From contig PCWN01000007.1 in NCBI GenBank assembly GCA_002787355.1, positions 248,996-312,995 on the forward strand: DNA of 64,000 bases. Reading direction: 5' to 3'. The notes below the pieces were generated by a model. The model saw only the letters and a list, made by a program, of their open reading frames with translations, was not told the origin of the DNA and did not search any database. Within the stretch, counting starts at the first letter, position 1; every line of letters begins with the position of its first letter. Source of the stretch: Candidatus Magasanikbacteria bacterium CG11_big_fil_rev_8_21_14_0_20_39_34. GTDB lineage: Bacteria; Patescibacteriota; Patescibacteriia; Magasanikbacterales; UBA922. Made by a program: the position numbers and the translations under genes. Positions 33,571 to 49,471 of the stretch are shown here, piece after piece.

Positions 33571-33605
33571 AAAAAAGGGGCAAAAAGAAGCCCCTTTTTC
33601 TTTTT
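33571..33605 (-). terminator. Rho-independent terminator downstream of the giant surface-protein gene
   Basis: The sequence aaaaaaGGGGCaaaaagaaGCCCCttttt is a GC hairpin with flanking A/T runs. Confidence 0.55.
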
Positions 33606-33615
33606 AAATTCTGAG

Positions 33616-36600
33616 TTATAGGCTAAATAGAGCGGATATTTCAGGTTGTGTTAAAACACGGTTATATACCCGTACATCATCCATATAACCAGAAAATGGC
33701 TGTGTTCCGGTTCCAGATTGATTTTTGTCATGGAACTTCGTATCATTGTTGGTTGCTCCAACTCCAATGTCACCACTATGAGACCACACCTGTGATCCCT
33801 CACCAGACGCACGAAGGCTTCCATTGAGATATCCTCGTAGAGCATCTTGTGTACGTGTTGTTCCACCCTGGAGTGTGAGTACAACAGAATACCAATTTCC
33901 TGGAGTAATAGTTCCCAGATCTAAGAAGGTTCCCCTCCAACCAGACTCGTTGGTAGGTTCATTCCAACCACCAACATACAGATGTCCGGCATCTATATAG
34001 ATATTGAGCCCCCTTGAGGTTCCTCCTTCTTCAAAGAGAACTTGACGAGAAGAAACAGCACTTGGATTAAATACCAATGAAATACTTCTTGCTGTTTGTA
34101 CCGCAGTATTCATAAGCGGACTATCCTTAAAGTGAATGTAGTCATCTACTCCATCAAATGAAGCTGACTCACCATACTTTCCATTCTGAACCACTTGTAC
34201 ACCATTTTTTAATTCACCATTATTTCCAAGTCCTGAATAGTCCCAAGCATACGTTCCTTCAATCACAAAGGGAAGCTGCATCACCAAACTTGTTCTTGAA
34301 AGCGGATCATTCTTCACTTCAAAAGGAAGTCGTGCATCTGACGCCTGGTCATGAAGCAATGCAACCTCTGAGGCATCCAATTCTCGGTTGTAAATCTTGA
34401 GTTCATCAATTGATCCCAAAAGTGAAGACGCACCGGAACCAGACTTTGCTCCATCGTGAAAGAGCGTATCACTATTTACAGCTCCTACTCCAATACCGCC
34501 TGAGTGATCCCAGAGTTGGGATCCCATACCTTCCTCGAAAAGTACTCCATCTACATACCCCTTCAAAGCTTTTGCTTGTAATGTTGTTCCCCCGTTTAAT
34601 GTCAGAACAACATGATGCCAAACACCAGACTGAATAGCTGCGGTAGACAAATACGTCCCCTGCCAGCCACTTTCATTTGTGGGAGTATTCCATCCTGCTA
34701 CATAGAGTTTTCCTGAGTCAATATAGAGAGATAATCCTCGCACCGTTCCACCCTCTTCATACAAAACCTGACGTTTTGAGATGTCAAAAGCTTGAAACCA
34801 GAGAGAAATACTCCTCTGACCATAAATACCAAGGTTGGTATCATCGGAATTTGGAACCTTTACATAATCTGCATTTCCATCCAAAGTGAGTGATCCTTGA
34901 CTATGACCAAATACAGGATTTATATATGCATTCCCTGAAAGTGTAGCATTATGTGAAGCAGGTGATGCATCCGTGAGATCAAAATCAAAATGATAGTCCC
35001 CCACCAACCCAACTGGAGAAACATCTTGTGGTGGTGGAACACTTTGCGCTTCTACGGTAAAACTGTGTTGTGACTTGTTTGCCACAGTCCAAGAATTCGC
35101 CAACACATTTCCCGCTACATCTTTCACATTCTCAACGGCAAAGTAATAAGATACCCCATAGTCAAGTGGCAGTGTTGTATTGAAGGTTGCAACTTTATTT
35201 TGTGAGTTAAGTGTTAAGCTATTCAAGAATACCACCGTATCATCACTCATACGTCTGAGTTGCAAGTTTGTATAATTTACGGTAGCGGGATCCACTGCCT
35301 CGCTGAAGGTAATAAATGGAACAACATCCACAGAAACATTTTGCTCAAGAGCTGCGGGACTCTGGAGAGTAACCGTAGGCGCAAGTACATCTTGTTGATC
35401 TGGGGTAAGCGGATCACAGTCCTCATCTTTGCCATTATTGGCAATCTCAATCGCCCCTGGGTGTACGCTCGCGTCATTGTCATTGCAATCTATCTGAGAG
35501 TTATACCCATCCGCATCAGCATCAAGGAAATCCCGTGTTACTGGGTTGCAATCATTATCCACTCCATCGTAGAGTACTTCTGTAGCTCCTGGGTGGATAC
35601 TGGCATCATTGTCATTACAGTCTACTGTTGAAGAGTATCCATCCGCATCGGCATCAACTTCAACTGGTGGTTCCACTGGGCCTGGATTGCTTGATTCTAT
35701 TATTTGTGCAAGTTCTAATCGTGCAGCTTCCCAAGTATCTGGATCAATTGACCAACTAATGTCTGTGTGCTTCCAGCTTGCTCCAGGTTCTTCTACACCT
35801 ACTTCCCACAATACTTTAGGAATAATCTCTTGAATTATTTGATCTACCCTTTGTGGGTCAACGGCACTTGCCAAAGCAAGGTAGTCTGCATCTTGAATAC
35901 CTCTTCTCCAGTATTTCAAACGAAGACTCGCAATTGGACCATTCATACCATAGGACTCTTCTCTATGCCGAACATCGGTTCCAGGATAAAACAATACTCC
36001 GTCTCCATTTCCTATTGGAGTATACTGACTGGCACCCGTTTCCCCTCTTCCACCTTCCGGATCCGTGCTATTGTCATACTGAGTTTGATTTCCAAAGGTT
36101 TGAGCATGGGTAAAGAGATTTGTATGAGGAGCATTTCCCTCATCCTGTGATGAACCATTGAAATTATGGTAATAGGTACTCTCCCAATAAAACCATCTAT
36201 CAATCCCTTCCTTATACTGTGTCCAAGGAATGGTACGCAAAGCAACACCATCATCTTCTGTCATAAAGGTTCCTGTTGCTGGTCGTGCGCCATTATAGAA
36301 GTAAAGCCTCTTTCCTGGATCATTTTTGTAGAATGGGGTATTTTTTGTTCCCCAATCCGTTGGTGCCACAGAAAAGGTAGTCGGAGAAATATCTACAGAA
36401 GGCATCTGTGTTCTTCCCGTATCTGCTCCAGCCGTCACCAAGGTCATAAGCGCACTTCCTGGACCGCTACTTTGCTCAATATCTTGTGCCCATCTTTGGA
36501 GTTTGTCATAGTTTCCGCCGGGTTCATCCATAAGATATACAAAGTGCTCTACATCTGGGGCATTTTGGTTAAACCAACTCTGCCAGGCATCAGCATGTCT

Positions 36601-39072
36601 TTGTAATTCTCCTCTATCCAGCCAATCATAAATGCTCCCTGAAAAGTCTCTGTTATCATTCCATGCCCAAGCAATGGCTCCATAGGTTCCAATAGAATAT
36701 ACTCCATTACCTACTCCAACTCCAGGGCCTTTATATCCGTTTTGTGCCGTAAAGAGGTTTCCATTCAAACGTGGAATCCAAGCATCATTTGGTCTATTAT
36801 TTCCTGCACCTTCATCAATCAGTGAAATTTTGTGTCGGTGTGCCATGAGAAAATAATTATCCACCAAAGTAGAGTTTGTATATCCATACCTTCCTTGAAT
36901 TTGACCATCCGGTTCTCCTGAGATAAAAAGCATGGTCTTTGAAGTTGGTTCATCCGGCAATACAAAGTTTTTTACTTCAAGTTGAACCGGAACAAAAGAA
37001 ATATTCCCATTTTGATTCACTTTTACCTGCCCTTGGTAGATTCCAGCAGGTGCATCTTTTGGAATATAGATGTCCGCCCAAATACTTTGATTCTCACCTG
37101 AGGGAATTGTAAATGGTTGTTCCAACTCCAGAGGAACTGCAATATCTGGGTAGTATTTATCGTGATCTGGTCTATCTGTCCAATTATATCCTGTACCCCA
37201 TCCACGTGCATCATGTGGTCTTTGCAAACGCAATGGCGTGTGTCTCTGGTCATACTGTCCATAGCCAAGGGTACTCACACCTTTTATTTGAAGATAACGA
37301 ACATAAAAGAGCTCAATATCTCGATTGGTCCAGTCAAAAAGGGTATTTTTATCTCCACTATAGGGTGCAGAACCAATTCTATAATTGCCTGGCCCTGTAA
37401 GCTCATCAAAAGTAACATTTAGGTTTCCAGCTGCGGTATTGCCCGCTTCTAACACTAAGTTAAAAGCTACCACCTCATTTTTTGCACCAAATAACTGTAC
37501 TTGTTGCCCATTCCAGGCACTATTCACAATACTATTTGGGTTATTACTGAACCGAAGTTCATCTTTGGTCACCTTATCTTCCCCATTATTTGCCCAAATT
37601 CCCGTAAGATTTCCACCAACAGAGACAGGAATATCAATAGAAAAGTTACTATTGGATACCCGAACTTCATTGTTATCGAAATAGCTTTTTAAAGTCAGTA
37701 AGATAGCAGATCCATCTGAGGGTAAATTAGTATTGAGAAGTTGCTGAGTTCCATTTAATCCTGTATATGCAGAAAACTGACTTGGATTTTGTGCTGTTCC
37801 TACCAAAAGATCATAACTATTTGCATCTACCTCCTGCCATGATACCGTCACATTCTTACTGCTGAGTACTGCATTATTTTGAGGTTGGAGTATCTGAGAA
37901 GCAAGTGGAACAATATTTCTTACATGTGCTGTAAATTTATATCCCGTTGCAGAATATTGTGCCGGATCTACTTCGTAACCCGTGCTATTATTTGCATAAA
38001 TGCGTACATAAAACGTTCTTCCATCTTCTGGAAGGTTATCAATGGTAATGGAATTTGTTTTTGTTGTAAACCAACCACTTCCTGCAAGCGTGCCCGAGAT
38101 ACTTCCTACCGAGTCCCCAATGGCCAACGCATAGTGATCCAAACGTGAGTCTACTACAGGATTCCACTGCAGTGTAAGACTTGTAGATGGCAACTGCTGA
38201 GGAACAGAGGTATCCCCTGTATTTTGTTGTTGGTAAAAGGAAGAGTCAGGAGCTGTGAGCTGAAGTGGGCTCAATGCAGGATCCACCACCGGTGGTTCAA
38301 CGACAGGTCCACTCACATCTACCGAAAAAGTACTTTGGGATTCCAATGCTCCACTTCCCGCAAAATTGCTTCTGAGTGTCAAATACACCAAAGAACCATC
38401 TGTTGGAAGGTTGGCATCAAGTAATTTTTGTGTTGTTTGTATTCCGGTATAGGTAGCAAACGCTTCTTTATTCTGAGCTGTTCCTACGAAAAGATCATAT
38501 GTTTGTGCCCCAACATCTTGCCATTGGACTGTTATCGAGTCTGTATTGAGAACCGTGCCATCTTGTGGTTGTATTATGTTTGCTGCTACCTCAACGACAC
38601 CTCCTGTGTTTGAAGTAAACTTGTATGTTTTTGCAGAAAACTGCCCTGAATCAACTTCGTAACCACTACTATTGTTTGCAAAAATTCTTATATAAAAGTC
38701 GCGACCATCGCTTGGAAGATCCGTAAGCGTAAGAGAGTTATTTCGTGTTGTTAACCAACCTCCTGTAGGTAATATTCCCGTGATACTCCCGGGAGTATCC
38801 CCTACGGCAAGCGCATAATGATCAAAATTTGTATGCGACACGATATTCCACTCTAAAGAAAGCGTGGTACTCGGTAATGATTCCGGTATGGAATTATCAT
38901 CCGTATATAATTGCTGGTAGTACCTCGAGTCAACACTGGTAAGCTCCAGAGGATTCCCTGTGGCATATGCAGGCGTAATCAAACTCAGAGGTCCTAATCC
39001 TGGTACAATTGCTGTCACCACTATAACCAGTATTTTGAAAGCATGTACAATCCCCCTATATAGTTTATTCAT
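33616..39072 (-). CDS. Giant (1818 aa) secreted/surface multidomain protein. It has a signal anchor, a roughly 215-aa module duplicated in tandem, a central hydrolase-like region of about 600 aa, two Asp/Cys-rich putative metal-binding motifs, a bacterial Ig-like (SbsA-type) domain, and two C-terminal concanavalin-A/LamG-like lectin domains
   Basis: The N-terminal hydrophobic signal is KILVIVVTAIVPG. Residues about 40-255 and 265-480 are clearly homologous (LELTSVDSRYYQQLYTDDNSIPESLPSTTLSLEWN... versus LQLTAPDSSFYQQQNTGDTSVPQQLPSTSLTLQWN...). DADADGYSSTVDCNDNDASIHPG... occurs twice. The two LamG-like units contain LYVAGWNTPTNESGWQG and LYVGGWNEPTNESGWRG. Confidence 0.8.
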   Translation of the reverse strand: MNKLYRGIVHAFKILVIVVTAIVPGLGPLSLITPAYATGNPLELTSVDSRYYQQLYTDDNSIPESLPSTTLSLEWNIVSHTNFDHYALAVGDTPGSITGILPTGGWLTTRNNSLTLTDLPSDGRDFYIRIFANNSSGYEVDSGQFSAKTYKFTSNTGGVVEVAANIIQPQDGTVLNTDSITVQWQDVGAQTYDLFVGTAQNKEAFATYTGIQTTQKLLDANLPTDGSLVYLTLRSNFAGSGALESQSTFSVDVSGPVVEPPVVDPALSPLQLTAPDSSFYQQQNTGDTSVPQQLPSTSLTLQWNPVVDSRLDHYALAIGDSVGSISGTLAGSGWFTTKTNSITIDNLPEDGRTFYVRIYANNSTGYEVDPAQYSATGYKFTAHVRNIVPLASQILQPQNNAVLSSKNVTVSWQEVDANSYDLLVGTAQNPSQFSAYTGLNGTQQLLNTNLPSDGSAILLTLKSYFDNNEVRVSNSNFSIDIPVSVGGNLTGIWANNGEDKVTKDELRFSNNPNSIVNSAWNGQQVQLFGAKNEVVAFNLVLEAGNTAAGNLNVTFDELTGPGNYRIGSAPYSGDKNTLFDWTNRDIELFYVRYLQIKGVSTLGYGQYDQRHTPLRLQRPHDARGWGTGYNWTDRPDHDKYYPDIAVPLELEQPFTIPSGENQSIWADIYIPKDAPAGIYQGQVKVNQNGNISFVPVQLEVKNFVLPDEPTSKTMLFISGEPDGQIQGRYGYTNSTLVDNYFLMAHRHKISLIDEGAGNNRPNDAWIPRLNGNLFTAQNGYKGPGVGVGNGVYSIGTYGAIAWAWNDNRDFSGSIYDWLDRGELQRHADAWQSWFNQNAPDVEHFVYLMDEPGGNYDKLQRWAQDIEQSSGPGSALMTLVTAGADTGRTQMPSVDISPTTFSVAPTDWGTKNTPFYKNDPGKRLYFYNGARPATGTFMTEDDGVALRTIPWTQYKEGIDRWFYWESTYYHNFNGSSQDEGNAPHTNLFTHAQTFGNQTQYDNSTDPEGGRGETGASQYTPIGNGDGVLFYPGTDVRHREESYGMNGPIASLRLKYWRRGIQDADYLALASAVDPQRVDQIIQEIIPKVLWEVGVEEPGASWKHTDISWSIDPDTWEAARLELAQIIESSNPGPVEPPVEVDADADGYSSTVDCNDNDASIHPGATEVLYDGVDNDCNPVTRDFLDADADGYNSQIDCNDNDASVHPGAIEIANNGKDEDCDPLTPDQQDVLAPTVTLQSPAALEQNVSVDVVPFITFSEAVDPATVNYTNLQLRRMSDDTVVFLNSLTLNSQNKVATFNTTLPLDYGVSYYFAVENVKDVAGNVLANSWTVANKSQHSFTVEAQSVPPPQDVSPVGLVGDYHFDFDLTDASPASHNATLSGNAYINPVFGHSQGSLTLDGNADYVKVPNSDDTNLGIYGQRSISLWFQAFDISKRQVLYEEGGTVRGLSLYIDSGKLYVAGWNTPTNESGWQGTYLSTAAIQSGVWHHVVLTLNGGTTLQAKALKGYVDGVLFEEGMGSQLWDHSGGIGVGAVNSDTLFHDGAKSGSGASSLLGSIDELKIYNRELDASEVALLHDQASDARLPFEVKNDPLSRTSLVMQLPFVIEGTYAWDYSGLGNNGELKNGVQVVQNGKYGESASFDGVDDYIHFKDSPLMNTAVQTARSISLVFNPSAVSSRQVLFEEGGTSRGLNIYIDAGHLYVGGWNEPTNESGWRGTFLDLGTITPGNWYSVVLTLQGGTTRTQDALRGYLNGSLRASGEGSQVWSHSGDIGVGATNNDTKFHDKNQSGTGTQPFSGYMDDVRVYNRVLTQPEISALFSL

Positions 39073-39230
39073 AAAAAATTTGTTAAGATTGCACCCCCAA
39101 CGTAGTAAATTTTTGTTTTTATTACATACGGAGAAATTTTAAAATTAGAACCCTCCATCGCTGTAATCATAACATAAAGAAAAAAGAATGCAAACTGTGT
39201 GCACCCTTTCTTCTGCTTCTCTTTTTTTGA

Positions 39231-41498
39231 CTAGTTTACCACCTCAAAATCTGGCTGATTCTTATCTTTTTTTAGTTCAATTTTAGATATTTCAGACAAG
39301 TCAGAAAGCGCGTGGGCCTTGAGATATATATTTGAGAATGTATATAAAACATCGCCAATATACAAAGAACGAAGTACATTATTATCATAGTAGTTATATC
39401 CCCAAAAGAAATCACTTTCAGCAGGTGCTCCTCCATCGGAATGATCAATTTTTCCTTTGAGTTCAATTTTATCTGCAGTTATTTCAAACACCGCAGCACC
39501 AGAGAAAGTAAGTTTTCCCCAAGATTCTCCCCCAATTGATTCTCGCAAGCTTACGGGAATGGCCAAAAGATTTTTTTCTTTTGAGAATAAGAATGCTTTA
39601 TGATCATAGAGTGCAATGGAATCACTTCCTCCATCTCCAAGAGTTGCCGTTGTCTTTTCCTTTGGATTTGATACATCTGATACATCGAAAAGTGAAATTT
39701 TGATTCCCTTTGTTACAACAGAACCATATGAATTTTGCATAGTATCTTTTCCTATTCCAATAAGCGTATTCTCATCATAGGGGTGAAGATAATTTGAGAA
39801 TCCTGGCACTTTTAATTTTCCAAGGACTTTGGGCGCCTTTGGATCCAGTAAGTCAATTACAAATAGTGGGTCCACCTGTTCAAATGTTGTCATGTATGCC
39901 CTATTTTGCATAAACCTCACTGAATAAATTCGTTCTTCTGGTGCAAGATTGGTGAGACTTCCCACAATCTTCATATCTGCATCAAGCACATAGAGATTGC
40001 TAAAGGATTTCTTTTCTTCATCCGTGAGATATTGACTCCAGAGATTTCCACGAGTCGTAGCAATTCTAAAGTATCCTCCTGATTCATCCATAGAAAACTG
40101 ATTGAGAACACTTCCGGGAACTTCTCCTGTTTTTTCAAAGTGGATCTGACCATCTTGTAAAGCAATTTTATGAACAACAGTTTTTTCTATCTCCCCTATC
40201 AACTTGGAATATTTTTCTCTCATCATGGTATCAAATTGATCCTGAAGTGTCTTCTGCTGTTCTGGCGTCTGAGAATCTGCATATGCATAAAGAATCTGAC
40301 GGATTTTGTCTCTCTTTTCCCAGTCGGAAAGAATGAATTTTTCTACCGATTCAATTTTTTGAACTTTGAGTTTATCTTCAGCATTCAAAAGAGGAAAAAA
40401 GAGTGTTTTACTTACCTCAAACTCTATTTCTGATTCATCCAAATATTTTGTGTGCGTAAGATACATGGCATTTTCTGAAACATACATATTCTGTTGCCAA
40501 GGAAGAAGGAAAACATTTGCACTCACGGGCATGTCTGGGTTGACAATGTTAATGGCAGAAACCGTTACATAATTGAGGTTATTATAGGGAACATCAAAAT
40601 AATACACTTCCGGTAAAAGACAATTTGGCTTGTCATTACAATCCATTACCGTTTTTTCACCATTTACAATCATTTCCGGCAAGAGTGGACGCGGACCACC
40701 GCCATAGAAGGAGTTATATTTATCAGTTACAAAGTAAACATAATTCCCAATCATGCGGGAATTATTATAATTCCCTTCCAAATCCATATCTTTTATTTGC
40801 TTTGGATTTTTTTTGTCAGAGATGTCAAAAACCTTAAAGAAGGTGTACTGACTCTGTCCCCAAGGTGCAAAACTTTTTGATGTCTCTATAGGCTGAAATT
40901 GTGTATCACTTCCAAAAACAACCAACCTATCTCCTGAAATATAGAGTTCTTGTGGGCGAGAACGGAAAGCGATTTTTGAAAGGATTTGAGCGTTTTCAGC
41001 AGGATACGCATCCAAAATAAAGAGATCATTCTTTACGACCGCATAAACATACTTTCCATCTGTTTTTATAATATCTGATTCATCCACTCCCTGCACTTGA
41101 ACATTTGTTTGTGAGTAATCCGAAGTATTTGCTGCTGTGGGCATAGGTACTGGTGCACCAGCAACCGCATCATTCATCATTGGAGCTGCCATAGCCATGG
41201 TTTCCATCTTCATACTTCCGCCGGCACCCATTCCGCCACCCAAGGCTGACGGTTCATTATTTTTGAGAAACATGGCCAATTCACCAAGGTCCTTAAATTT
41301 CTTTAAGGTTCCTTGCTTTTGAAGTTCTTGATCCAGACTCTGAGAAGTGAGGTTTCCATTGGTAGGCTGTTGTGTTGTCTCACTCCCTGGCTTTTGGCTT
41401 GATGGAGCTGGTGTTACGGATCCCATCTTCCATGACATACTACAACCACCCAAAAAAAGCGTTGCAAAAAGTAAAAATGGAATATATTTTTTATACAT
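39231..41498 (-). CDS. Lipoprotein with a C-terminal beta-propeller domain (COG4880-like secreted beta-propeller protein)
   Basis: It has the lipobox LFLGGC|S, a low-complexity Ser/Gln/Met/Ala-rich linker, and a large beta-rich C-terminal region. It is co-oriented with and immediately upstream of the giant protein gene. Confidence 0.55.
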   Translation of the reverse strand: MYKKYIPFLLFATLFLGGCSMSWKMGSVTPAPSSQKPGSETTQQPTNGNLTSQSLDQELQKQGTLKKFKDLGELAMFLKNNEPSALGGGMGAGGSMKMETMAMAAPMMNDAVAGAPVPMPTAANTSDYSQTNVQVQGVDESDIIKTDGKYVYAVVKNDLFILDAYPAENAQILSKIAFRSRPQELYISGDRLVVFGSDTQFQPIETSKSFAPWGQSQYTFFKVFDISDKKNPKQIKDMDLEGNYNNSRMIGNYVYFVTDKYNSFYGGGPRPLLPEMIVNGEKTVMDCNDKPNCLLPEVYYFDVPYNNLNYVTVSAINIVNPDMPVSANVFLLPWQQNMYVSENAMYLTHTKYLDESEIEFEVSKTLFFPLLNAEDKLKVQKIESVEKFILSDWEKRDKIRQILYAYADSQTPEQQKTLQDQFDTMMREKYSKLIGEIEKTVVHKIALQDGQIHFEKTGEVPGSVLNQFSMDESGGYFRIATTRGNLWSQYLTDEEKKSFSNLYVLDADMKIVGSLTNLAPEERIYSVRFMQNRAYMTTFEQVDPLFVIDLLDPKAPKVLGKLKVPGFSNYLHPYDENTLIGIGKDTMQNSYGSVVTKGIKISLFDVSDVSNPKEKTTATLGDGGSDSIALYDHKAFLFSKEKNLLAIPVSLRESIGGESWGKLTFSGAAVFEITADKIELKGKIDHSDGGAPAESDFFWGYNYYDNNVLRSLYIGDVLYTFSNIYLKAHALSDLSEISKIELKKDKNQPDFEVVN

Positions 41499-42984: not shown

Positions 42985-43612
42985 TTATGACTTCCATATT
43001 CCCGTCCACTACCTTCAATGCAGACTGGTCATCCAGAACATACATGGTTTCTGTCATACCACTTGTCGCTTGAGCTATATTTTCTTTACGAAGTTTTGGA
43101 AACCAAACACTATTGAGATGAGGCACAACGTAATAATCAACCAAATGCAATCCTGGAATATCTTGCTTTTCATCCAAATCTTCTTCAAATAATTCTTGGG
43201 ACATACGCAGGGCCAAATCTTTTGATACGATAATACTTCCCGCACTCACTCCCACATATACTTTATTTTCAAGCAACTCCGGCAACATCTTGGTCAATCC
43301 GGATTTTTCTATCCATCGCATGAGATGATATGTATTTCCTCCTTCAAAATACAAAACATCTGCATTTTCTAATTTTGTTCTCAAAAGATCCGGTTCAAGA
43401 GCAGAAATGTCTGCAATGTCTATTTCTGCAAAACCACATTGTTGCAAAGAAACCAAATCCTCAATGAGCCATCCCTTATCCCCTACTTCTACATTTGAAG
43501 CGGTTGGGATAAATGCCAACTTTGTCTGTTCGGGTGTTTTGCCTACCAACTCAAATAAGGCTTTTTTGAGAGATTCATTGCGTATTCCCGCAGAAGTAAG
43601 AAGAAGTTTCAT
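42953..43612 (-). CDS. Peptidase S51 (dipeptidase E / cyanophycinase-like) family protein
   Basis: It has the class-I glutamine-amidotransferase-like fold with Ser nucleophile context VGVSAGSII. The N-terminus MKLLLTSAG is typical of PepE. Confidence 0.65.
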   Translation of the reverse strand: MKLLLTSAGIRNESLKKALFELVGKTPEQTKLAFIPTASNVEVGDKGWLIEDLVSLQQCGFAEIDIADISALEPDLLRTKLENADVLYFEGGNTYHLMRWIEKSGLTKMLPELLENKVYVGVSAGSIIVSKDLALRMSQELFEEDLDEKQDIPGLHLVDYYVVPHLNSVWFPKLRKENIAQATSGMTETMYVLDDQSALKVVDGNMEVISEGEWYIINE

Positions 43613-43666
43613 AGATATTGATATTAGGTAATTTTACGTACACAAAAATAGTTAATGTGAGAGAAC

Positions 43667-44293
43667 ATGTTTACCTTCACAGTATACCAAACGCTTGAAT
43701 TCCCAGCAATTATTGGTATACTCAAAGGGAAATGTATTCAATTATTTGCTATGTCAACCATTCGTTTTACAACCAAACTTCTTACTATTGGATCCACTAC
43801 CCTTGTACACCTTCCCCTGAGCGCTAGTAAAAAGCTCCCTTCTCGTGGGATGGTTATGGTGGACGGAAATATCAATGGTTTTGATTTTCAGGCCCCCTTG
43901 GAGCCGGATGGAAAAGAAAGTCACTGGTTTGAGGTAGAGAAGGCTCTACTCAACGGAACAGGAATAAAGCCAGGAGATACACTCACACTTACCATTACTC
44001 CATCCAAGAATTGGCCAGATCCAAAAATACCAAAAGACTTCCAAGAAGTTCTTTTTGCCAATACAGAAGCCAAAAAAACCTGGATGGATACCACTCCCCT
44101 TGCCCGTTGGGACTGGATACGTTGGATACGATCCACCAAACAACCGGAGACAAGAAAGAGACGTATTGAAGTAGCTTGCTCAAAACTTGAATCTGGAAAA
44201 AAAAGACCCTGTTGTTTCAATAGGAATCTTTGCACACAACCATCCGTATCACACAATGGAATCCTTCTTGAGAATACAGAGTCAAAAAAATAA
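43667..44293 (+). CDS. DUF1905 plus YdeI/OmpD-associated (bacteriocin-protection-like) domain protein
   Basis: The DUF1905-like region is MVMVDGNINGFDFQAPLEPDGKESHWFEV, and the C-terminal YdeI-like region is TWMDTTPLARWDWIRWIRSTKQPETRKRRIE. Confidence 0.5.
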   Translation: MFTFTVYQTLEFPAIIGILKGKCIQLFAMSTIRFTTKLLTIGSTTLVHLPLSASKKLPSRGMVMVDGNINGFDFQAPLEPDGKESHWFEVEKALLNGTGIKPGDTLTLTITPSKNWPDPKIPKDFQEVLFANTEAKKTWMDTTPLARWDWIRWIRSTKQPETRKRRIEVACSKLESGKKRPCCFNRNLCTQPSVSHNGILLENTESKK

Positions 44294-44326
44294 TTACACT
44301 CTATTTATTCACTTGAGTAAAAAAAT

Positions 44327-44560
44327 ATGAAACATATTCACTTGAAGCCAAGCTGGACAACCATTATCCTCTTTATGGCAATTATTCTTGCTCCCATCAT
44401 AGACGGCTACCCTGCTTTTGTCTTATTTTTTACGTATATAAAACTTGGTGAATTTTCTGCCCTTTTACTTATCCTTGGTTTTTTTGTATTTGCCTATATG
44501 GTTGCATACATGTTATCAAGAGGAATACTCTACACAAAAAATAGGTTGATGAGAAGATAA
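44327..44560 (+). CDS. Small two-TM membrane protein
   Basis: A 77-aa hydrophobic protein with no known motif. Confidence 0.3.
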   Translation: MKHIHLKPSWTTIILFMAIILAPIIDGYPAFVLFFTYIKLGEFSALLLILGFFVFAYMVAYMLSRGILYTKNRLMRR

Positions 44561-44588
44561 TCAAAAATTTGGATACCCTAAAAATGAT

Positions 44589-44960
44589 TTGTTTATGAAA
44601 ACATTTGTACAGTTTTTACTGAGTCTTCTTACAAGTATACTTCTTGGCATCTTGGGGCTTGGTGTCGGTGCCACTATTGGCGGTAATTTTGGTTTTCCTG
44701 CATTTGGGGGAAATGTTGGATATGAAGCCGGAGGTGTTTTTTTTGCAATTTTGGGAATTTCTTTGGGTAGCTTTTTCTTTTTTACATTACAAAATAAATT
44801 ACAATCAAAACAATTTCAATTCAAAATGCTCCTTGCAACTGCACTTACATTTTTTAAAGGAAACAAACCAAAAGCAAATTTAAAAATATGTTTCCAGTCT
44901 TTACTATTTATATTTCAAATTCTTGATCAACTTCTGCTAGATGTGTTTTTAACTCGTTAA
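44589..44960 (+). CDS. Small Gly-rich membrane protein
   Basis: A 123-aa protein with an N-terminal TM helix and Gly-rich hydrophobic segments (GVGATIGGNFGFPAFGGNVGYEAGG). Confidence 0.3.
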   Translation: MFMKTFVQFLLSLLTSILLGILGLGVGATIGGNFGFPAFGGNVGYEAGGVFFAILGISLGSFFFFTLQNKLQSKQFQFKMLLATALTFFKGNKPKANLKICFQSLLFIFQILDQLLLDVFLTR

Positions 44961-45876
44961 TCCCAGCGTCAAGAGCGTCAATATAAACTTCAAGTTCATA
45001 ATTTTCAAAATTGCCGGTTTGTTGAAATGTTTCAATTTTGCCAAATACATAATCTAATTTTTTGATTACTTCTTCTGTTCCTGGAATCCTCAAAGTTTCT
45101 CCAAATTTACCATAACGATTTTCCAAGCCTCTTTTTATCTTTTTATATAGCTTGTGATAATGATTAAAACTAGGCCACGCTAAAGGGTGACCCCATTGAA
45201 CGCCATAAATAAGATTTATCTGATACAGAGAAGGCTTATTTAACAAATCGGCTAATTTTTCATTTTTGAATTTTGTTTTGTGTTCTTTCTCTTCTTTTTG
45301 AATTTCTTTCATAACCATTTCTAATTCATTTCCGAGATGTTTATCTTGCTGACTGATGATATCCGCAAATTTTATGGTTTTACTTTCTGTTTTTGAGTGC
45401 ATCCACAACCTATATCTGAAACCGTCTTTGCTCAAAGATGAGCGGTCAATGGTACAAGAGGTAATTTCGTCATTTTCATACTTTGATTTATTACCTCTAT
45501 TTTCCTTTTTTACAGGGTGTCCGATGGTTTCATTTCTGACTTGTCTAATTTTAAAAAGTTCGGAATATTTATTGTCTGTACAATTAATTTTTTTGCTTAT
45601 ACCAAATAAAGATATTTTCAAAAAGTTTACAGCGTCTTGCTGGATAAAAAGAGCTTGTAAAAGTCCATAGGTTGCTAAATATGGGTTTTTTATAAATAAA
45701 TCGTTCGAATTTTTTTGGAAATCTTCTATTGCCAAGCAGGTATCTTCCAGCGTATCTAATGCCGCACAAAATTGATTCCAGTCGCCACTCTGTTTTCTGG
45801 AATAAACTTGAGTCTTTTTTATTGTGGAGCTATTAAAAAGCTCCCTGATTTGATGGGTGATTTCTGTAACGAGCAT
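44908..45876 (-). CDS. Hypothetical island protein with a HEPN-like Rx5H motif, a possible abortive-infection-type RNase
   Basis: A 322-aa protein. KIRQVRNETIGHP fits the HEPN Rx(4-6)H signature in a predicted helical N-terminal region. Its codon usage is more AT-rich than neighbouring housekeeping genes. No other recognisable domain was seen. Confidence 0.35.
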   Translation of the reverse strand: MLVTEITHQIRELFNSSTIKKTQVYSRKQSGDWNQFCAALDTLEDTCLAIEDFQKNSNDLFIKNPYLATYGLLQALFIQQDAVNFLKISLFGISKKINCTDNKYSELFKIRQVRNETIGHPVKKENRGNKSKYENDEITSCTIDRSSLSKDGFRYRLWMHSKTESKTIKFADIISQQDKHLGNELEMVMKEIQKEEKEHKTKFKNEKLADLLNKPSLYQINLIYGVQWGHPLAWPSFNHYHKLYKKIKRGLENRYGKFGETLRIPGTEEVIKKLDYVFGKIETFQQTGNFENYELEVYIDALDAGINELKTHLAEVDQEFEI

Positions 45877-45923
45877 ATCTTATAAATAAAAAGGAAAGAA
45901 ATTTTTGGTTTTCTGCCGCCGCT

Positions 45924-46058
45924 TCACTCCTCCAAAAAGGCTAATAAGTATAGTTTAACATTTTTGCAGAGTTTACGCCCGCCTTTTCTCCGTCGTTTGC
46001 GTCGGCGCGAGGCGCGACGGTAACTCGGAAGTCCACTCACGCTTCGCAAGCAAATCAT
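45924..46058 (-). CDS. Tiny (44 codon) arginine/lysine-rich ORF in a GC-rich spacer; it may be a structured non-coding element instead
   Basis: It translates as MICLRSVSGLPSYRRASRRRKRRRKGGRKLCKNVKLYLLAFLEE. The ATG is 9 nt downstream of, and in frame with, the TAA stop of the NDT-like gene. The region is locally GC-rich (CGN codons or a GC hairpin CGTCGGCGCGAGGCGCGACG). It is below the ORF-track size cut-off. Confidence 0.2.
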   Translation of the reverse strand: MICLRSVSGLPSYRRASRRRKRRRKGGRKLCKNVKLYLLAFLEE

Positions 46059-46067
46059 ATTTTGTTC

Positions 46068-46436
46068 TTACATTTGATTCAGAATTTGTTCAATTCCAAA
46101 AATTAATTCTTTATTATTAGAATATTCAACAAAGTTCTTTGAAACTACTTTTAATGAACCTGATACTTTTGAACCTTTTTTGAAAATACATACTATTGGA
46201 ACTCCGTATGTGTCTGCCCAACCTAATTCAATTCCTAAACCAGTAGCTGGTTCAGAAACTTCTGCAATTAATAATTCTGCTTCATTTTTCAAATAGTCTT
46301 TGGAATTGAATGGTTCATCAGAAGTTTCATGAGGTAAAACAAAAGTATGTTCACCATTTAAGGAACTTTGTCTAATTGGTTCATATAATTCTTTTTTGAA
46401 GTCAAAACTTCTTGAATGTGCAACGTAAATCTTCAT
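46068..46436 (-). CDS. Nucleoside 2-deoxyribosyltransferase-like (NDT/SLOG-clade Rossmann-like) small protein
   Basis: A 122-aa protein. The N-terminus KIYVAHSRSFDF and the C-terminal ATGLGIELGWADTYGVPIV match the NDT-family pattern (K-I-Y-x-A... / D-x-G-T-x-x-E-x-G-x-A-x-x-x-G-K/V-P-V) with the catalytic Glu. It is a very AT-rich gene. Confidence 0.5.
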   Translation of the reverse strand: MKIYVAHSRSFDFKKELYEPIRQSSLNGEHTFVLPHETSDEPFNSKDYLKNEAELLIAEVSEPATGLGIELGWADTYGVPIVCIFKKGSKVSGSLKVVSKNFVEYSNNKELIFGIEQILNQM

Positions 46437-46575
46437 AAAGTAAAAAATTGATTGTTTATATATAAATCTGATGGTGCAAAACTTGATTACTCCTAATGTT
46501 CACGTATATCTGATGTTGCAACCGCAGCGAGCACTACCGCCCAAGCAACAGCAGGAGCGAGCCAGATATACGCTA

Positions 46576-47139
46576 TTACGAGTTGTAATTTCTAAAACTA
46601 TTCCTCATTCCAGCTGCATCATTTAATATTTCGTACTTATTCCCCACAATCCGAAAATGTCTAGAAAAATAATACTTCTTAGAAGAACTGTTTAGAGCCC
46701 AATAGATAATTTCTATTTTAGATGTACCTATTATATCTGTGGGTTTGGTGTTTGGTATTCTATAACTCTTTGAGTGATGTTTAAGACTTTGGTCTGGATA
46801 CAAAATCACACTTTCATCATTGGCTGATTTGCTTTTTTCACCATTGAATTCGGACATCCCGATAAATTGAATAGGGACTTTTCCCACGTTCTTCACAGAA
46901 TAAAAAAACTGTATAAAATCTGTCGTCTCACTCAAATTTTTTCCGTCACCGCTTACAATTAATTCAATATCACGCTCTATTGTTACATATGGGGTTGTAA
47001 ATAGTTCAAGTTGCTTCTCCGACACATTTGAAAGGACGTGCGTTTTATATGTATACCAAATCGTAATTATAACAAGAACTATTGTTGAAAGCGCTTGAAC
47101 AGCAGCCACGTTTTCGTTTAAAAATTTAATTAAATACAT
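46576..47139 (-). CDS. Hypothetical N-terminally membrane-anchored protein
   Basis: A 187-aa protein with one N-terminal TM helix (LSTIVLVIITIWYTY) and a beta-rich soluble part. No motif was recognised. Confidence 0.35.
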   Translation of the reverse strand: MYLIKFLNENVAAVQALSTIVLVIITIWYTYKTHVLSNVSEKQLELFTTPYVTIERDIELIVSGDGKNLSETTDFIQFFYSVKNVGKVPIQFIGMSEFNGEKSKSANDESVILYPDQSLKHHSKSYRIPNTKPTDIIGTSKIEIIYWALNSSSKKYYFSRHFRIVGNKYEILNDAAGMRNSFRNYNS

Positions 47140-47253
47140 AGTTTTAGAAATTATTTCAGCTGACGTCTATGAATAGTCGAAGTTTGAAAGTGCTAAAATG
47201 GGAGCCTTAGCGACCCACCACTGCCAAATTTGGGTGAGTGAGCGTTAAAAAAA

Positions 47254-47487
47254 TTATTTCAAAAATTTGTATTCAATAAATAATCCTATTAGTACAGGCA
47301 CAGTGCCAATAACAATAAGCCAAAACGTTTTAGGACGTTTTTCAATAAATTCATGCAGTATGCGACTTTTTATCATTTTTGTTCCTTGCCCATCAATCTT
47401 TGCACCTTGAATATCGCAATCTTCAAATGTGTTATCTTTTGCCTCTTTTCTGACATGAAGGGAGAATTTTTGATTATTTTTGGTCAT
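47254..47487 (-). CDS. Small tail-anchored membrane protein
   Basis: A 77-aa protein with a C-terminal TM helix (TFWLIVIGTVPVLIGLFIEY). Confidence 0.3.
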   Translation of the reverse strand: MTKNNQKFSLHVRKEAKDNTFEDCDIQGAKIDGQGTKMIKSRILHEFIEKRPKTFWLIVIGTVPVLIGLFIEYKFLK

Positions 47488-47548
47488 ATTTTTGAAATAA
47501 TTTTTACCGAGTGAATCGACTATACTGTATTAGCAGATGTAATGCCAC

Positions 47549-48244
47549 TTAGATTTTACTGCTTAGATGCTTAACAATTTTTTGGATTTCTTTTAGAGAC
47601 TTCTGCATAAGCGTCAATGCAGAAATATTGACACTATCAAATTTGAAATCAACCCACAAAATTCTTTTCACCTGAATTGAAGGATTTGGAAATGGCATAT
47701 TTGTTGTTTGGTCTACTTCAGATCCAAAAATTCTTGCTCCCTTTCCGAATTTTGCAAGTTTCGGATTATAAGACAGGCCGCCACCTTGAATGTGGTCAAC
47801 ATCCACACATTCTTGCTCTTCTCTTGTTTGTTCAATGAGGTCAACATGCTTGTTTCCTATGTTTACATCGTTAAATTGCTTCAACCACATTTGTTCTTGC
47901 CCCTGAAATGGCTGAATTGATAACAAGTATGAATAAAGATCGAGATTACCATCTTTAAGTCCGGGGAACCATTTATTTATACACTTTTCGAAACTTGTCA
48001 AATCGGGAAGGATCGGGAAATAAAAAATCTTGCTTCCTTGATTATTTACAACCGAACTTTCACGAATTTCATTTGCTAGATAGTCAAGTACTGAGCGAAT
48101 ATTTTCAAAAAGATTTTTTATTTCCACCTTCAATTCAGGTTTAATTTGCTTCTTATGCAGGGAATTATTGTATTCCTTTGTGATCTCCTCTAATTGTTGA
48201 GCAGCCTTCTTTAACAGTGCTTTTATACTTTTTGCTCTTTTCAT
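47549..48244 (-). CDS. Hypothetical island protein (231 aa)
   Basis: It is the first gene of the minus-strand island gene string and has no recognisable motif. A helical N-terminus is predicted. Confidence 0.35.
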   Translation of the reverse strand: MKRAKSIKALLKKAAQQLEEITKEYNNSLHKKQIKPELKVEIKNLFENIRSVLDYLANEIRESSVVNNQGSKIFYFPILPDLTSFEKCINKWFPGLKDGNLDLYSYLLSIQPFQGQEQMWLKQFNDVNIGNKHVDLIEQTREEQECVDVDHIQGGGLSYNPKLAKFGKGARIFGSEVDQTTNMPFPNPSIQVKRILWVDFKFDSVNISALTLMQKSLKEIQKIVKHLSSKI

Positions 48245-48332
48245 AATTTTTAGTTAAATGGCACCATTTCCGCTAACGTTTCTAAGTATGTAAAATTTTA
48301 CTGAAATAGTCTGGAAAATTGGGCGATGCCCC

Positions 48333-48361
48333 TTGACGAAGCCGATTAATTTTAATACAAT
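48333..48361 (+). promoter_or_regulatory. Near-consensus sigma70-type promoter (TTGACG-17 nt-TACAAT)
   Basis: TTGACG is at 48333-48338 and TACAAT at 48356-48361, with a 17-nt spacer. No protein-coding gene follows on this strand. Confidence 0.5.
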
Positions 48362-48367
48362 GAATGA

Positions 48368-48556
48368 GACCGCCTTACGTGGCGCCTGCTGTGTAACAGC
48401 CGAAAGGTGCGTGTACCAGTAGTTTCAGGCACGAGGAACTTAAAAATGCTGGGACCAGAATAGAACTTGACCTGCTATTTATAGCAGAGATAGTGATTCC
48501 CTAACCATGCGGTTTCTAGGACTGTCTCGAGATCCATTTGAGGCGGTTTTTTTTTG
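48368..48556 (+). ncRNA. Candidate sRNA of about 190 nt (identity unknown; 6S-like architecture is possible)
   Basis: It lies downstream of the promoter above. It is GC-rich relative to the genome. The 5' ACCGCCU pairs with the 3' AGGCGGU as a closing stem, followed immediately by U9. It has internal hairpins such as CUGCUAUUUAUAGCAG. No ORF is present. Confidence 0.4.
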
Positions 48557-48591
48557 CTAAAAACAAATTACTCCGACATTTTCCTAACTAG

Positions 48592-48678
48592 CGGAGAAGG
48601 CGGGATTCGAACCCGCGGTACGGTTTCCCGTACACATCCTTTCCAAGGATGCGCATTCGACCACTCTGCCACCTCTCC
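48592..48678 (-). tRNA. tRNA-Ser (anticodon GGA), class II with a long variable arm; CCA is not encoded
   Basis: It folds by hand into a cloverleaf. The acceptor stem is GGAGAGG/CTTCTCC, the anticodon stem-loop is CATCC-TTGGAAA-GGATG, the variable arm is TACGG-GAAA-CCGTA, and the T-arm is GCGGG-TTCGAAT-CCCGC. Confidence 0.9.
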
Positions 48679-48697: not shown

Positions 48698-49471
48698 TTA
48701 GGAGCTTTTCTTTTTCCTCAAAAATATCCAAACTCCCAAACAGAACAAGACTATAGAAAAATATTGCGCCGGTGTCAAGCCCAAAATACGCACGTCCGAG
48801 TAGATAAGATCCGTGGCTCTATAGAAATCAAGAAAAAATCGTACAAAACCGTAGTACATGGCCACTATTCCTGCAAAAAACCCTGTGGAAAATTTCTTTT
48901 TGCGGACAAAGAAAAAGGCAAGAGCAAGCGGAATCATGGCAAGAATTTCCATCAACGCCATGTCCAAGCGTGGTCCTCCCGGACTTTTGAGTGCTAAAAG
49001 AGAATGAGACAACGTTCCCGGATGATCATGGATAAGAAAACATCCTACTCTTCCAACAATCCAACCAAACACCGCTCCAAACGCAAAGATATCCAAAATT
49101 TCTGATAAATCCTTTTTGGAAAACGATGCTTTTTTTCTGGCGTAGTAGAGTCCACCCAAAAATGCTCCAACAAAACCTCCGTAGGAAGAAAGTCCCCCTT
49201 CCCATACTTTTATAATATCTATGGGATGAGCCAGGTAAAATGACAGATCATAAAAAAGAATATGAAAGACCCGAGAAAAAACAAGACCAAAGAGAATAGC
49301 ATAGCTTGCCATATCAATAAGTTTTTCTGCCACTTCTTTTGAAAACAGTCTTTTTGCTCTTTTATAAATAATAAAAACAGAAAGTAACATTCCAAGCGCA
49401 ACAAAAAATCCCCATACTTGAATAGGTATGGGACCCAGATGTACAACGGTAAATTGAAAGTATGGAATCAT
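48698..49471 (-). CDS. lgt: Prolipoprotein diacylglyceryl transferase
   Basis: A polytopic membrane protein with the Lgt signature region GRVGCFLIHDHPG and a typical N-terminus. Confidence 0.85.
   Translation of the reverse strand: MIPYFQFTVVHLGPIPIQVWGFFVALGMLLSVFIIYKRAKRLFSKEVAEKLIDMASYAILFGLVFSRVFHILFYDLSFYLAHPIDIIKVWEGGLSSYGGFVGAFLGGLYYARKKASFSKKDLSEILDIFAFGAVFGWIVGRVGCFLIHDHPGTLSHSLLALKSPGGPRLDMALMEILAMIPLALAFFFVRKKKFSTGFFAGIVAMYYGFVRFFLDFYRATDLIYSDVRILGLTPAQYFSIVLFCLGVWIFLRKKKSS

Follow-up and report, generated by a model that had tools for sequence, protein, structure and literature searches.

The stretch of DNA analysed here (the window) comprises 64,000 nucleotides (nt) of contig PCWN01000007.1, positions 248,996 to 312,995, from Candidatus Magasanikbacteria bacterium CG11_big_fil_rev_8_21_14_0_20_39_34, a bacterium of groundwater with a very small genome. 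Its source belongs to the Parcubacteria group within the Patescibacteria group, and thus to the candidate phyla radiation (CPR). Two adjacent genes on the reverse strand, both deposited as hypothetical, are considered. Gene A encodes a large multidomain protein whose central module resembles glycoside hydrolase family 123 (GH123), and gene B, upstream of it, encodes a beta-propeller lipoprotein. A previous, sequence-only reading of this DNA took the pair to be a single surface module; it had both open reading frames (ORFs) right in position, in shared direction and in length in amino acids (aa).

33616..39072, reverse strand: gene A (PIR04165.1, COV59_03195), ORF for an 1818-aa secreted multidomain protein, deposited as 'hypothetical protein'
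39231..41498, reverse strand: gene B (PIR04166.1, COV59_03200), ORF for a 755-aa Beta_propel (PF09826) lipoprotein, deposited as hypothetical

Independent ENA, JGI and Logan assemblies contain the identical protein A on 12 contigs, with the same genes around it. Misassembly or contamination of the locus, an outcome the sequence-only reading had allowed for, is ruled out by that agreement. From its N-terminus to its C-terminus, the protein is composed of the following parts.

38962..39072, reverse strand: N-terminal signal sequence (aa 1-37), whose basic n-region is followed by a hydrophobic core of 19 aa and then by AYA-TG
38314..38955, reverse strand: duplicated module, copy 1 (aa 40-253), in which an FN3-type domain precedes a second beta-rich sub-domain
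37630..38271, reverse strand: duplicated module, copy 2 (aa 268-481), with its best fn3 stretch at aa 293-371
35686..37617, reverse strand: GH123-like catalytic module (aa 486-1129, 644 aa), an N-terminal beta-sandwich and then a (beta/alpha)8-type barrel
36523..36528, reverse strand: Asp849-Glu850, the predicted catalytic DE pair, in YLMDEPGG
35398..35658, reverse strand: two MopE-type Asp/Cys-rich motifs (aa 1139-1225; PF11617)
35086..35388, reverse strand: Big_5 (SbsA-type) bacterial Ig-like domain (aa 1229-1329; PF13205, 44.9 bits)
34354..35016, reverse strand: Laminin_G_3 (LamG)/concanavalin-like domain 1 (aa 1353-1573; PF13385)
33628..34272, reverse strand: Laminin_G_3/concanavalin-like domain 2 (aa 1601-1815; PF13385)

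The central module is a discrete unit; its 1352 homologues, at about 50% identity, cover 99-100% of the 644 aa. In Pfam it matches GH123_N_2 (PF22680) at 28.1 bits, against a cut-off of 27, and GH123_N (PF19543) at 22.4 bits, against 22. An AlphaFold model of aa 486-1129, built from an alignment of 34 sequences, has a predicted template modelling score (pTM) of 0.88. When this model was compared with the PDB using Foldseek, the first 22 matches were all GH123-type beta-N-acetylgalactosaminidases (E values from 1.5e-29 to 1.7e-17, template modelling (TM) scores on the target of 0.60-0.76), and the next class of structures begins, after a large gap, at an E value of about 1e-6 and a TM score of about 0.2. 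The best match is NgaCa (8k2g; E 1.5e-29, TM 0.75), a Group 1 oligosaccharide-releasing beta-N-acetylgalactosaminidase (Sumida et al. 2024, PMC11087588). Sequence profiles of the module searched against the PDB recover GH123-type beta-N-acetylgalactosaminidases and nothing else, and NgaCa is again the best of them (E 1e-19). Profile-profile alignment with hhalign used as references the first ~400 residues of the characterised enzymes in Supplementary Data 3 of PMC11087588. It places the module with Group 1 at 99.2% probability (E 2.6e-19) over module residues 3-235, the beta-sandwich, and the YPD and NQxIWxD positions are matched.

The GH123 and Group 1-4 enzymes combine a beta-sandwich with a (beta/alpha)8 barrel. 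Mutagenesis has established that their DE motif is catalytic, in a retaining, substrate-assisted mechanism, and a few conserved residues (Tyr, Arg) tie the N-terminal domain to a C-terminal 'DUF4091' region (PMC11087588). The predicted counterpart of the DE motif in A lies in YLMDEPGG, at aa 846, and both this motif and GVLFYPG, at aa 1025, fall on family-invariant positions. D849 and E850 are invariant in 34 of the 34 family members, as are about 110 other positions, and in the AlphaFold model they are situated at the C-terminal end of the predicted strand 357-364 (module numbering). In extended hhalign alignments, the DE of A falls over the DE of NgaCa and, independently, over that of NgaBa, NgaCp and NgaBf. 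Nearer the C-terminus, HMMER aligned NGDGVLFYPG...SLRLKYWRRGIQD of A with NGEGMLVYPG...SIRLKAIRKGIED of NgaCa and with GDGVLYYPG...SLRLE of NgaAt. The motif GDGVLFYPG...SLRLK of A lies over the conserved Tyr/Arg ('DUF4091') region of these two enzymes, and the Tyr and the Arg are invariant within its family. The predicted DE assignment is thus carried by four concordant, individually imperfect lines, namely fold, invariance, strand position and alignment register. Judging from the model and the alignments together, we take the module to be a sister clade, at some distance, of GH123 and Groups 1-4; Group 1 is the nearest of them, and the catalytic machinery of the module is apparently intact. 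The sequence-only reading had called this central region hydrolase-like; Foldseek, conservation and hhalign sharpen the description to a GH123-type fold with an invariant DE pair. Such a pair in such a fold would make A primarily an enzyme, by predicted activity, and not just an adhesin.

The clade to which the module belongs is large, with more than 1,300 sequence clusters in more than 15 phyla. A scan of species-representative genomes yielded 260 relatives, and the 79 loci that were kept (45-53% identical, more than 15 phyla) include Chloroflexota, Delta- and Alphaproteobacteria, Myxococcota, Bdellovibrionota, Elusimicrobiota, Planctomycetota, Verrucomicrobiota and Acidimicrobiia. Four of the 79 are from CPR, in the lineages WWE3 and Peribacteria and in a 'Patescibacteria group' metagenome-assembled genome (MAG). 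Most homologues are stand-alone proteins of 650-750 aa to which only a signal peptide is added, and others are fused to SLH domains, a type IX secretion system (T9SS) tail, dockerin, malectin or FN3 arrays. In MAGs of Peribacteria and of the Patescibacteria group (loci L021 and L028), the module follows three N-terminal SLH domains; in a Bdellovibrionales MAG (L035), it is fused to two malectin domains, and one further protein (P0379) pairs it with a single C-terminal LamG_3 domain. Those homologues that have been named are called 'DUF4091', 'DUF6067' or 'glycoside hydrolase domain-containing'. The full architecture of A (four FN3-type domains, the catalytic module, two MopE motifs, Big_5 and two LamG domains) occurs in none of the proteins examined. 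An exhaustive search with residues 620-1818 of A gave 25,602 matches, and each of the best 150, which were inspected, matches either the catalytic part or the tail, never the complete arrangement.

Two side observations concern this clade. Predatory lineages are conspicuous among the best 79 of the 260 relatives, with eight loci from Bdellovibrionota/Oligoflexia, about six from Myxococcota and one from Bradymonadales, in a list that is ranked by similarity and hence a biased sample. A protein of 1366 aa (P0363) has two tandem GH123-like modules, of which the second exceeds the GH123_cat threshold (51 bits); by its sequence, it could be a bridge between the clade of A and curated GH123.

Around the catalytic module, every domain that the sequence-only reading had named was recovered by domain annotation, and A appears extracellular and glycosidase-like. 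What had been read as a signal anchor is indeed an N-terminal hydrophobic export segment. By the AXA rule, however, it is more likely a cleavable Sec signal peptide than an anchor, because AYA-TG, at aa 35-39, comes after the hydrophobic segment. No second hydrophobic segment occurs in A, and its only four cysteines (1152, 1175, 1196 and 1219) all lie inside the MopE motifs, one pair to each (1152/1175 and 1196/1219); both features are as one would expect of an exported protein. Secretion is further supported by the homologues, which bear signal peptides and SLH domains, a T9SS tail, dockerin and malectin.

The duplicated module, which had been estimated at about 215 aa, consists of two copies (aa 40-253 and 268-481) that are 53% identical over 214 aligned positions, and an FN3 domain is present in each (PF00041, 40.6 bits in two stretches, cut-off 25). 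The two Asp/Cys-rich DCNDND motifs, with DCND at aa 1151 and 1195, match the MopE family (PF11617, 69 bits in two stretches, cut-off 27) with conserved Cys pairs, and the region also has a PDB match to 2vov, the structure of MopE; metal binding, as had been suggested for them, is putative. The SbsA-type Ig domain corresponds to Big_5. The two LamG/concanavalin-like domains, 46% identical to each other, together score 105 bits against PF13385 (two stretches, cut-off 27.6), and domain 1 has a PDB match to 4qvs; by family, they are putative carbohydrate-binding domains. Protein A ends in LamG domain 2, with no C-terminal anchor motif. The combination of an export signal, a GH123-like module and lectin-like domains agrees with the earlier description of A as a secreted carbohydrate-active protein.

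The reading that we favour, at a probability of roughly 0.6, is that A is a secreted modular glycoside hydrolase of the CPR cell, made from its own transcript, that trims N-acetylhexosamine (HexNAc) while tethered by its LamG domains, and that B is an unrelated neighbour. After Sec export, the four FN3-type beta-sandwich domains would act as a spacer. If A works as GH123 and its Nga relatives do, Asp849 would orient the 2-acetamido group of the substrate, and Glu850 would serve as acid/base in a retaining, substrate-assisted cleavage of beta-linked N-acetylhexosamine, most likely beta-N-acetylgalactosamine (beta-GalNAc). Cleavage may take place within a longer chain, the closest solved relative being the cleft-type, oligosaccharide-releasing NgaCa. 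The MopE motifs, presumably stabilised by disulfides, and the Ig domain would act as further spacers and link this catalytic head to the tandem LamG_3 cassette. The most likely ligand of the cassette is a glycan or some other molecule of a surface, and its binding would hold A on its target. That target is most likely an exogenous polysaccharide, either partner-cell envelope or matrix material. In its most likely role, A would trim polysaccharide that contains HexNAc, whether carried by a partner cell or part of the matrix, and the gain may be access to the polysaccharide target or the scavenging of amino sugars.

Several results weigh against this reading. The Pfam model of the catalytic domain itself, GH123_cat (PF13320), scores 14.8 bits, under its gathering threshold of 23.1, and by that threshold the A module would be a distant sister clade and not a curated GH123 member. 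An NCBIfam scan of A and B gave no meaningful match. Confidence is low, with a predicted local distance difference test score (pLDDT) under 50, for about 100 residues of the module, among them loops with a possible part in shaping the active site. A profile of the barrel alone found no match among PDB sequences even at an E value of 10, which is why the DE assignment had to lean on fold, conservation and the extended hhalign alignments, and in these the DE-to-DE register falls in a low-confidence stretch. Identity to NgaCa is 18%, too low for specificity (GalNAc versus N-acetylglucosamine, GlcNAc) or mode of action (endo versus exo) to be transferred to A. The literature on DUF6067 gave no functional information, and no characterised member of the clade was found there; a search combining GH123 with CPR found no paper linking them in the library that was searched. 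Finally, the LamG ligand and a host of the organism are both putative.

The sub-threshold GH123_cat score and the wealth of binding-type domains (FN3, Ig and LamG) could also be taken to mean that A is a non-catalytic adhesin, its GH123-like module having degenerated into a lectin-like binding domain. We consider this very improbable. In a degenerate module, one would not expect the DE pair to be invariant, together with about 110 other positions, in 34 members that come from many phyla; most members of the family are stand-alone proteins of ~650 aa, as expected of enzymes, and identity of about 50% across phyla fits an active site under selection.

A more serious question is whether the polysaccharide on which A would act is the cell's own. 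It is possible, if unlikely, that A trims or releases the exopolysaccharide (EPS) or secondary cell-wall polymer of its producer, with the LamG domains bound to the same surface polymer, much as PslG, PelA, BcsZ and Sph3 act in their own biosynthetic systems. The Peribacteria and Patescibacteria versions of the module are tethered to the producer's wall by three SLH domains, and in the window genes for Wzy_C, PGA_cap and other envelope proteins lie ~5-17 kilobases (kb) from A. There is also some recurrence of EPS-type genes near the module in other phyla: of 75 loci, GT4 is found in eight, GT2 in six, Wzy-like and epimerase genes in five each, Wza-like genes in four, and Wzz and deacetylase genes in three each. 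This recurrence is weak, however; the families concerned are common in any genome, most of the loci have no such neighbours, and linkage of the catalytic clade to EPS clusters was set aside as too weak to build on. The genes on either side of A in the genome studied here are those for RecQ, MsrB and hydrolases and do not form a polysaccharide cluster, and the malectin domains on the Bdellovibrionales version point to foreign glycans.

The reading of A as an enzyme acting on exogenous glycan treats B as a neighbour only, whereas the sequence-only reading had joined the two in one module. The relevant features of the intergenic region, of the region downstream of A and of the start of B are as follows.

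41442..41498, reverse strand: signal peptide and lipobox of B (MYKKYIPFLLFATLFLGG-C19; LFLGG-C19), read from the sequence
39178..39214, reverse strand: terminator-like hairpin directly after the B stop codon (-16.5 kcal/mol, z -2.78)
39194..39166, reverse strand: promoter-like site with an extended -10 element, upstream of A and overlapping the hairpin, found by consensus
33572..33599, no strand assigned: GC-rich hairpin with A and T runs on either side, between the A stop and the RecQ start (-16.9 kcal/mol, z -2.55)

On the side of a dedicated two-gene surface apparatus, in which B would anchor or partner A for joint attachment to a host glycan surface, the genes are adjacent, co-directional and 158 nt apart. 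Both products carry export signals, B being probably lipid-anchored and A having no anchor of its own, and lectin, FN3 and beta-propeller domains are found in CPR surface proteins that have been widely proposed as host-interaction factors (PMC5220378; PMC13059738). The comparison with related genomes nevertheless went against the pair. A Beta_propel homologue is found near the catalytic module in none of the 79 genome loci (flanks of up to 8 kb), and in the same loci and flanks none of the N-terminal, MopE/Big_5 or LamG modules of A is encoded. In the other direction, 83 loci of B homologues (about 1 Mb in all, 41 of them at least 10 kb long) contain no GH123-like gene and none of the N-terminal, MopE or Big_5 modules of A; a weak LamG match is present in two of the 83. 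Six annotated neighbourhoods likewise lack an A-B pairing, so that adjacency is absent from every relative examined. Furthermore, the CPR homologues of the catalytic module anchor themselves by SLH domains, with no propeller partner.

Within the 158-nt gap, the hairpin after B is followed by a U-rich tract, and its stability is like that of the hairpin after A, which is likely the terminator for A. The hairpin in the gap and the promoter-like site are energy and consensus predictions, and the best-supported interpretation of them is that A is transcribed on its own, separately from B; some read-through from B into A may still occur, a further point against the favoured reading. Taken together with the unconserved adjacency and the different neighbours of B elsewhere, this arrangement makes the two-protein anchored apparatus the least supported reading and, in our estimation, quite improbable. 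B should be annotated as a neighbour of A, not as part of a system with it.

The description of B as a beta-propeller lipoprotein was itself accurate. B matches Beta_propel (PF09826) at an E value of 3e-157 over profile positions 1-495 of 495, its lipobox residue Cys19 is conserved in at least 90% of the family, and a gene for Lgt is present in the window at 48698..49471. The family has 3861 homologues, mostly in Patescibacteria and at ~50% identity; those that are named come from Falkowbacteria, Parcubacteria and 'Patescibacteria group' genomes. The model of B is a propeller with a helical-bundle insert at aa 355-437, for which a fold search against the PDB returned generic WD40-type propellers only (TM at most 0.26) and no functional lead; the literature on PF09826 likewise yielded no functional information. 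In B-homologue loci, genes for a DUF5656-type membrane protein (21 of 81) and for a PDZ protein (19 of 81) recur as neighbours, joined in some cases by one for a T2SSE ATPase; near B in the window, all three are missing. Such surroundings are a more plausible functional neighbourhood for the family than gene A. Our best guess is that B has an envelope role of its own, given the lipid anchor and the PDZ and membrane-protein neighbours found elsewhere. Compared with the COG4880/PF09826 secreted beta-propellers, B has a full-length Pfam match and no notable difference, although, unlike many PF09826 loci, it is without DUF5656 and PDZ neighbours.

Some further observations on the B family may be recorded. 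At L092, L108, L006, L009 and ~20 other loci, the Beta_propel gene of CPR is often followed by two genes, for a multi-pass membrane protein of DUF5656 type and for a PDZ-domain protein, and it is sometimes preceded by a T2SSE/PilT-like ATPase gene. The UniRef name of B is 'Copper amine oxidase-like N-terminal domain-containing protein', and Pfam finds no such domain in it. Residues ~55-80 of B form a short, confidently modelled helix-strand-helix element between two disordered linkers.

The C-terminal tail of A, comprising the MopE motifs and the two LamG domains, is not confined to A. CPR proteins that have other heads carry tails with 52-57% identity to its tandem LamG cassette; the heads are phytase/SdiA-regulated-like in Doudnabacteria and others, a GDSL lipase, and unassigned heads in ~1,800-aa proteins. 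The closest relative is P0241 (COV59_02685; partial, 700 aa), in which the end of a phytase/SdiA-regulated-like head is followed by two MopE motifs and two LamG domains, without the Big_5 insert; its tail is 57-59% identical to that of A. P0241 is absent from the window, and we infer from the COV59 locus-tag prefix in common that the genome encodes this paralogue at another place, in which case the genome would reuse the tail on at least two different exo-proteins. The tails of different proteins are more alike than the two LamG domains of A are to each other (46%), which suggests that the MopE-LamG-LamG cassette moves as a unit. LamG_3 also occurs elsewhere beside GH9 and beside another GH123-like module. 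As a separate observation, a 585-kb CPR contig (JGI 3300071326, L009:1-5022) encodes a 2,410-aa protein with GDSL lipase, MopE and Laminin_G_3 domains. This giant exo-enzyme, whose tail is of a similar kind, lies ~3 kb upstream of a B homologue and is not adjacent to the propeller gene.

It may be that the module represents a fifth GH123-like lineage, a phylum-spanning set of secreted, endo-acting beta-N-acetylhexosaminidases, and that the CPR tail is an 'address label', shuffled and specific to the lineage, for hydrolytic heads in a toolkit for feeding on host envelopes, although we regard this wider proposal as doubtful. If it held, GH123-like, phytase/SdiA-like and GDSL lipase heads would be sent to the same partner-cell surface. 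The lineage, with identity of ~50% between Chloroflexota, Bdellovibrionota and CPR, would have as its target a widespread bacterial glycan, of the surface or the matrix.

The rest of the window is consistent with the earlier impression of minimal housekeeping surroundings, to which envelope genes can be added. The former include ATP synthase, MetRS, CysRS, LigA, GatA, PriA, RecQ and a UvrD-type helicase, and the latter Alr, Wzy_C, PGA_cap and a DD-carboxypeptidase. GC content is 0.41-0.43 across A and ~0.38 in the window; recent horizontal acquisition of A was considered on grounds of composition and dropped, the difference being too small to argue from. The lowest GC content (0.34 versus ~0.38) is found at ~43600-48500, where Pfam assigns no family to several of the ORFs (one of them, 44908-45876, is 322 aa long). 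This stretch ends near tRNA-Ser(GGA) at 48591-48678 and may represent an island whose genes are mobile or specific to the lineage. At 20838-23162, on the forward strand, lies the gene for a protein of 774 aa with an S11 D-Ala-D-Ala carboxypeptidase domain in its C-terminal part (residues 525-750); the ~520 residues before it have no Pfam match at an E value of 1e-5 or below. Another envelope-related gene, at 16104-17891 on the reverse strand, encodes a 595-aa protein with a PGA_cap (CapA-like capsule synthesis) domain at residues 298-525, and its ~300 N-terminal residues have no assigned domain.

That CPR bacteria have large surface proteins in which lectin, FN3 and propeller domains occur, and that these are candidate host-interaction factors, is a recognised theme (PMC5220378, PMC13059738). 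The host attachment that the sequence-only reading proposed is the standard interpretation of such proteins and is putative for A. What is new here is that a GH123-type catalytic core is assigned to the 'hypothetical protein' A, that this core belongs to a large, highly conserved and uncharacterised clade whose copy in A lies under the threshold of the Pfam catalytic model, and that the tail of two LamG domains behind MopE motifs is a reused CPR cassette. CPR bacteria are thought to live off other cells, but a biochemical function that can be tested is at hand for very few of their surface proteins. For A there is now a concrete hypothesis, that of a retaining beta-N-acetylhexosaminidase with Asp849/Glu850 as its catalytic pair. 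The tail may serve for targeting, in which case its ligand could help to identify the partner organism, and the negative result on the A-B pairing is useful in that B should not be annotated with A.

Among systems already described, NgaCa of Cohnella abietis (Group 1; PDB 8k2f/8k2g; PMC11087588) is the best structural and profile match. The two share the beta-sandwich and barrel and the YPD and NQxIWxD positions, and the DE pair and the G-x-G-x-L-x-YPG...S-x-RLK motif are aligned. They differ in sequence (18% identity) and in length, the A module being ~140 residues longer, with insertions in the sandwich (~aa 83-150) and the barrel (~484-538, module numbering). Moreover, NgaCa is a stand-alone protein of 513 aa, whereas the A module sits inside a protein of 1818 aa and its activity is predicted. 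The GH123 enzymes NgaP, CpNga123 (5fqe) and BvGH123 (5l7r) resemble A in fold (Foldseek E ~1e-20), in the matches to GH123_N and GH123_N_2 above threshold, and in a DE pair that by analogy would imply retaining, substrate-assisted chemistry. They differ in that A scores 14.8 on GH123_cat, below the gathering score of 23.1, and they share 12-13% identity with A; their action is also of the exo type, at pocket-like active sites, whereas the group nearest to A, Group 1, is of the cleft type.

The proteins named 'DUF4091', 'DUF6067' or 'glycoside hydrolase domain-containing' are much nearer, with 45-55% identity over the full 644 aa and the invariant residues in common. Unlike A, these are either stand-alone proteins of 650-750 aa or fusions to SLH, a T9SS tail, dockerin, malectin or FN3 arrays. 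Finally, the large surface proteins of CPR bacteria, proposed as host-interaction factors in Absconditicoccaceae (PMC13059738) and more generally (PMC5220378), are comparable to A in size (more than 1500 aa), in the signal peptide, in the FN3 and concanavalin-type domains and in the CPR genome that encodes them. A stands apart from them in carrying an apparently intact glycosidase module, and would be an enzyme first.

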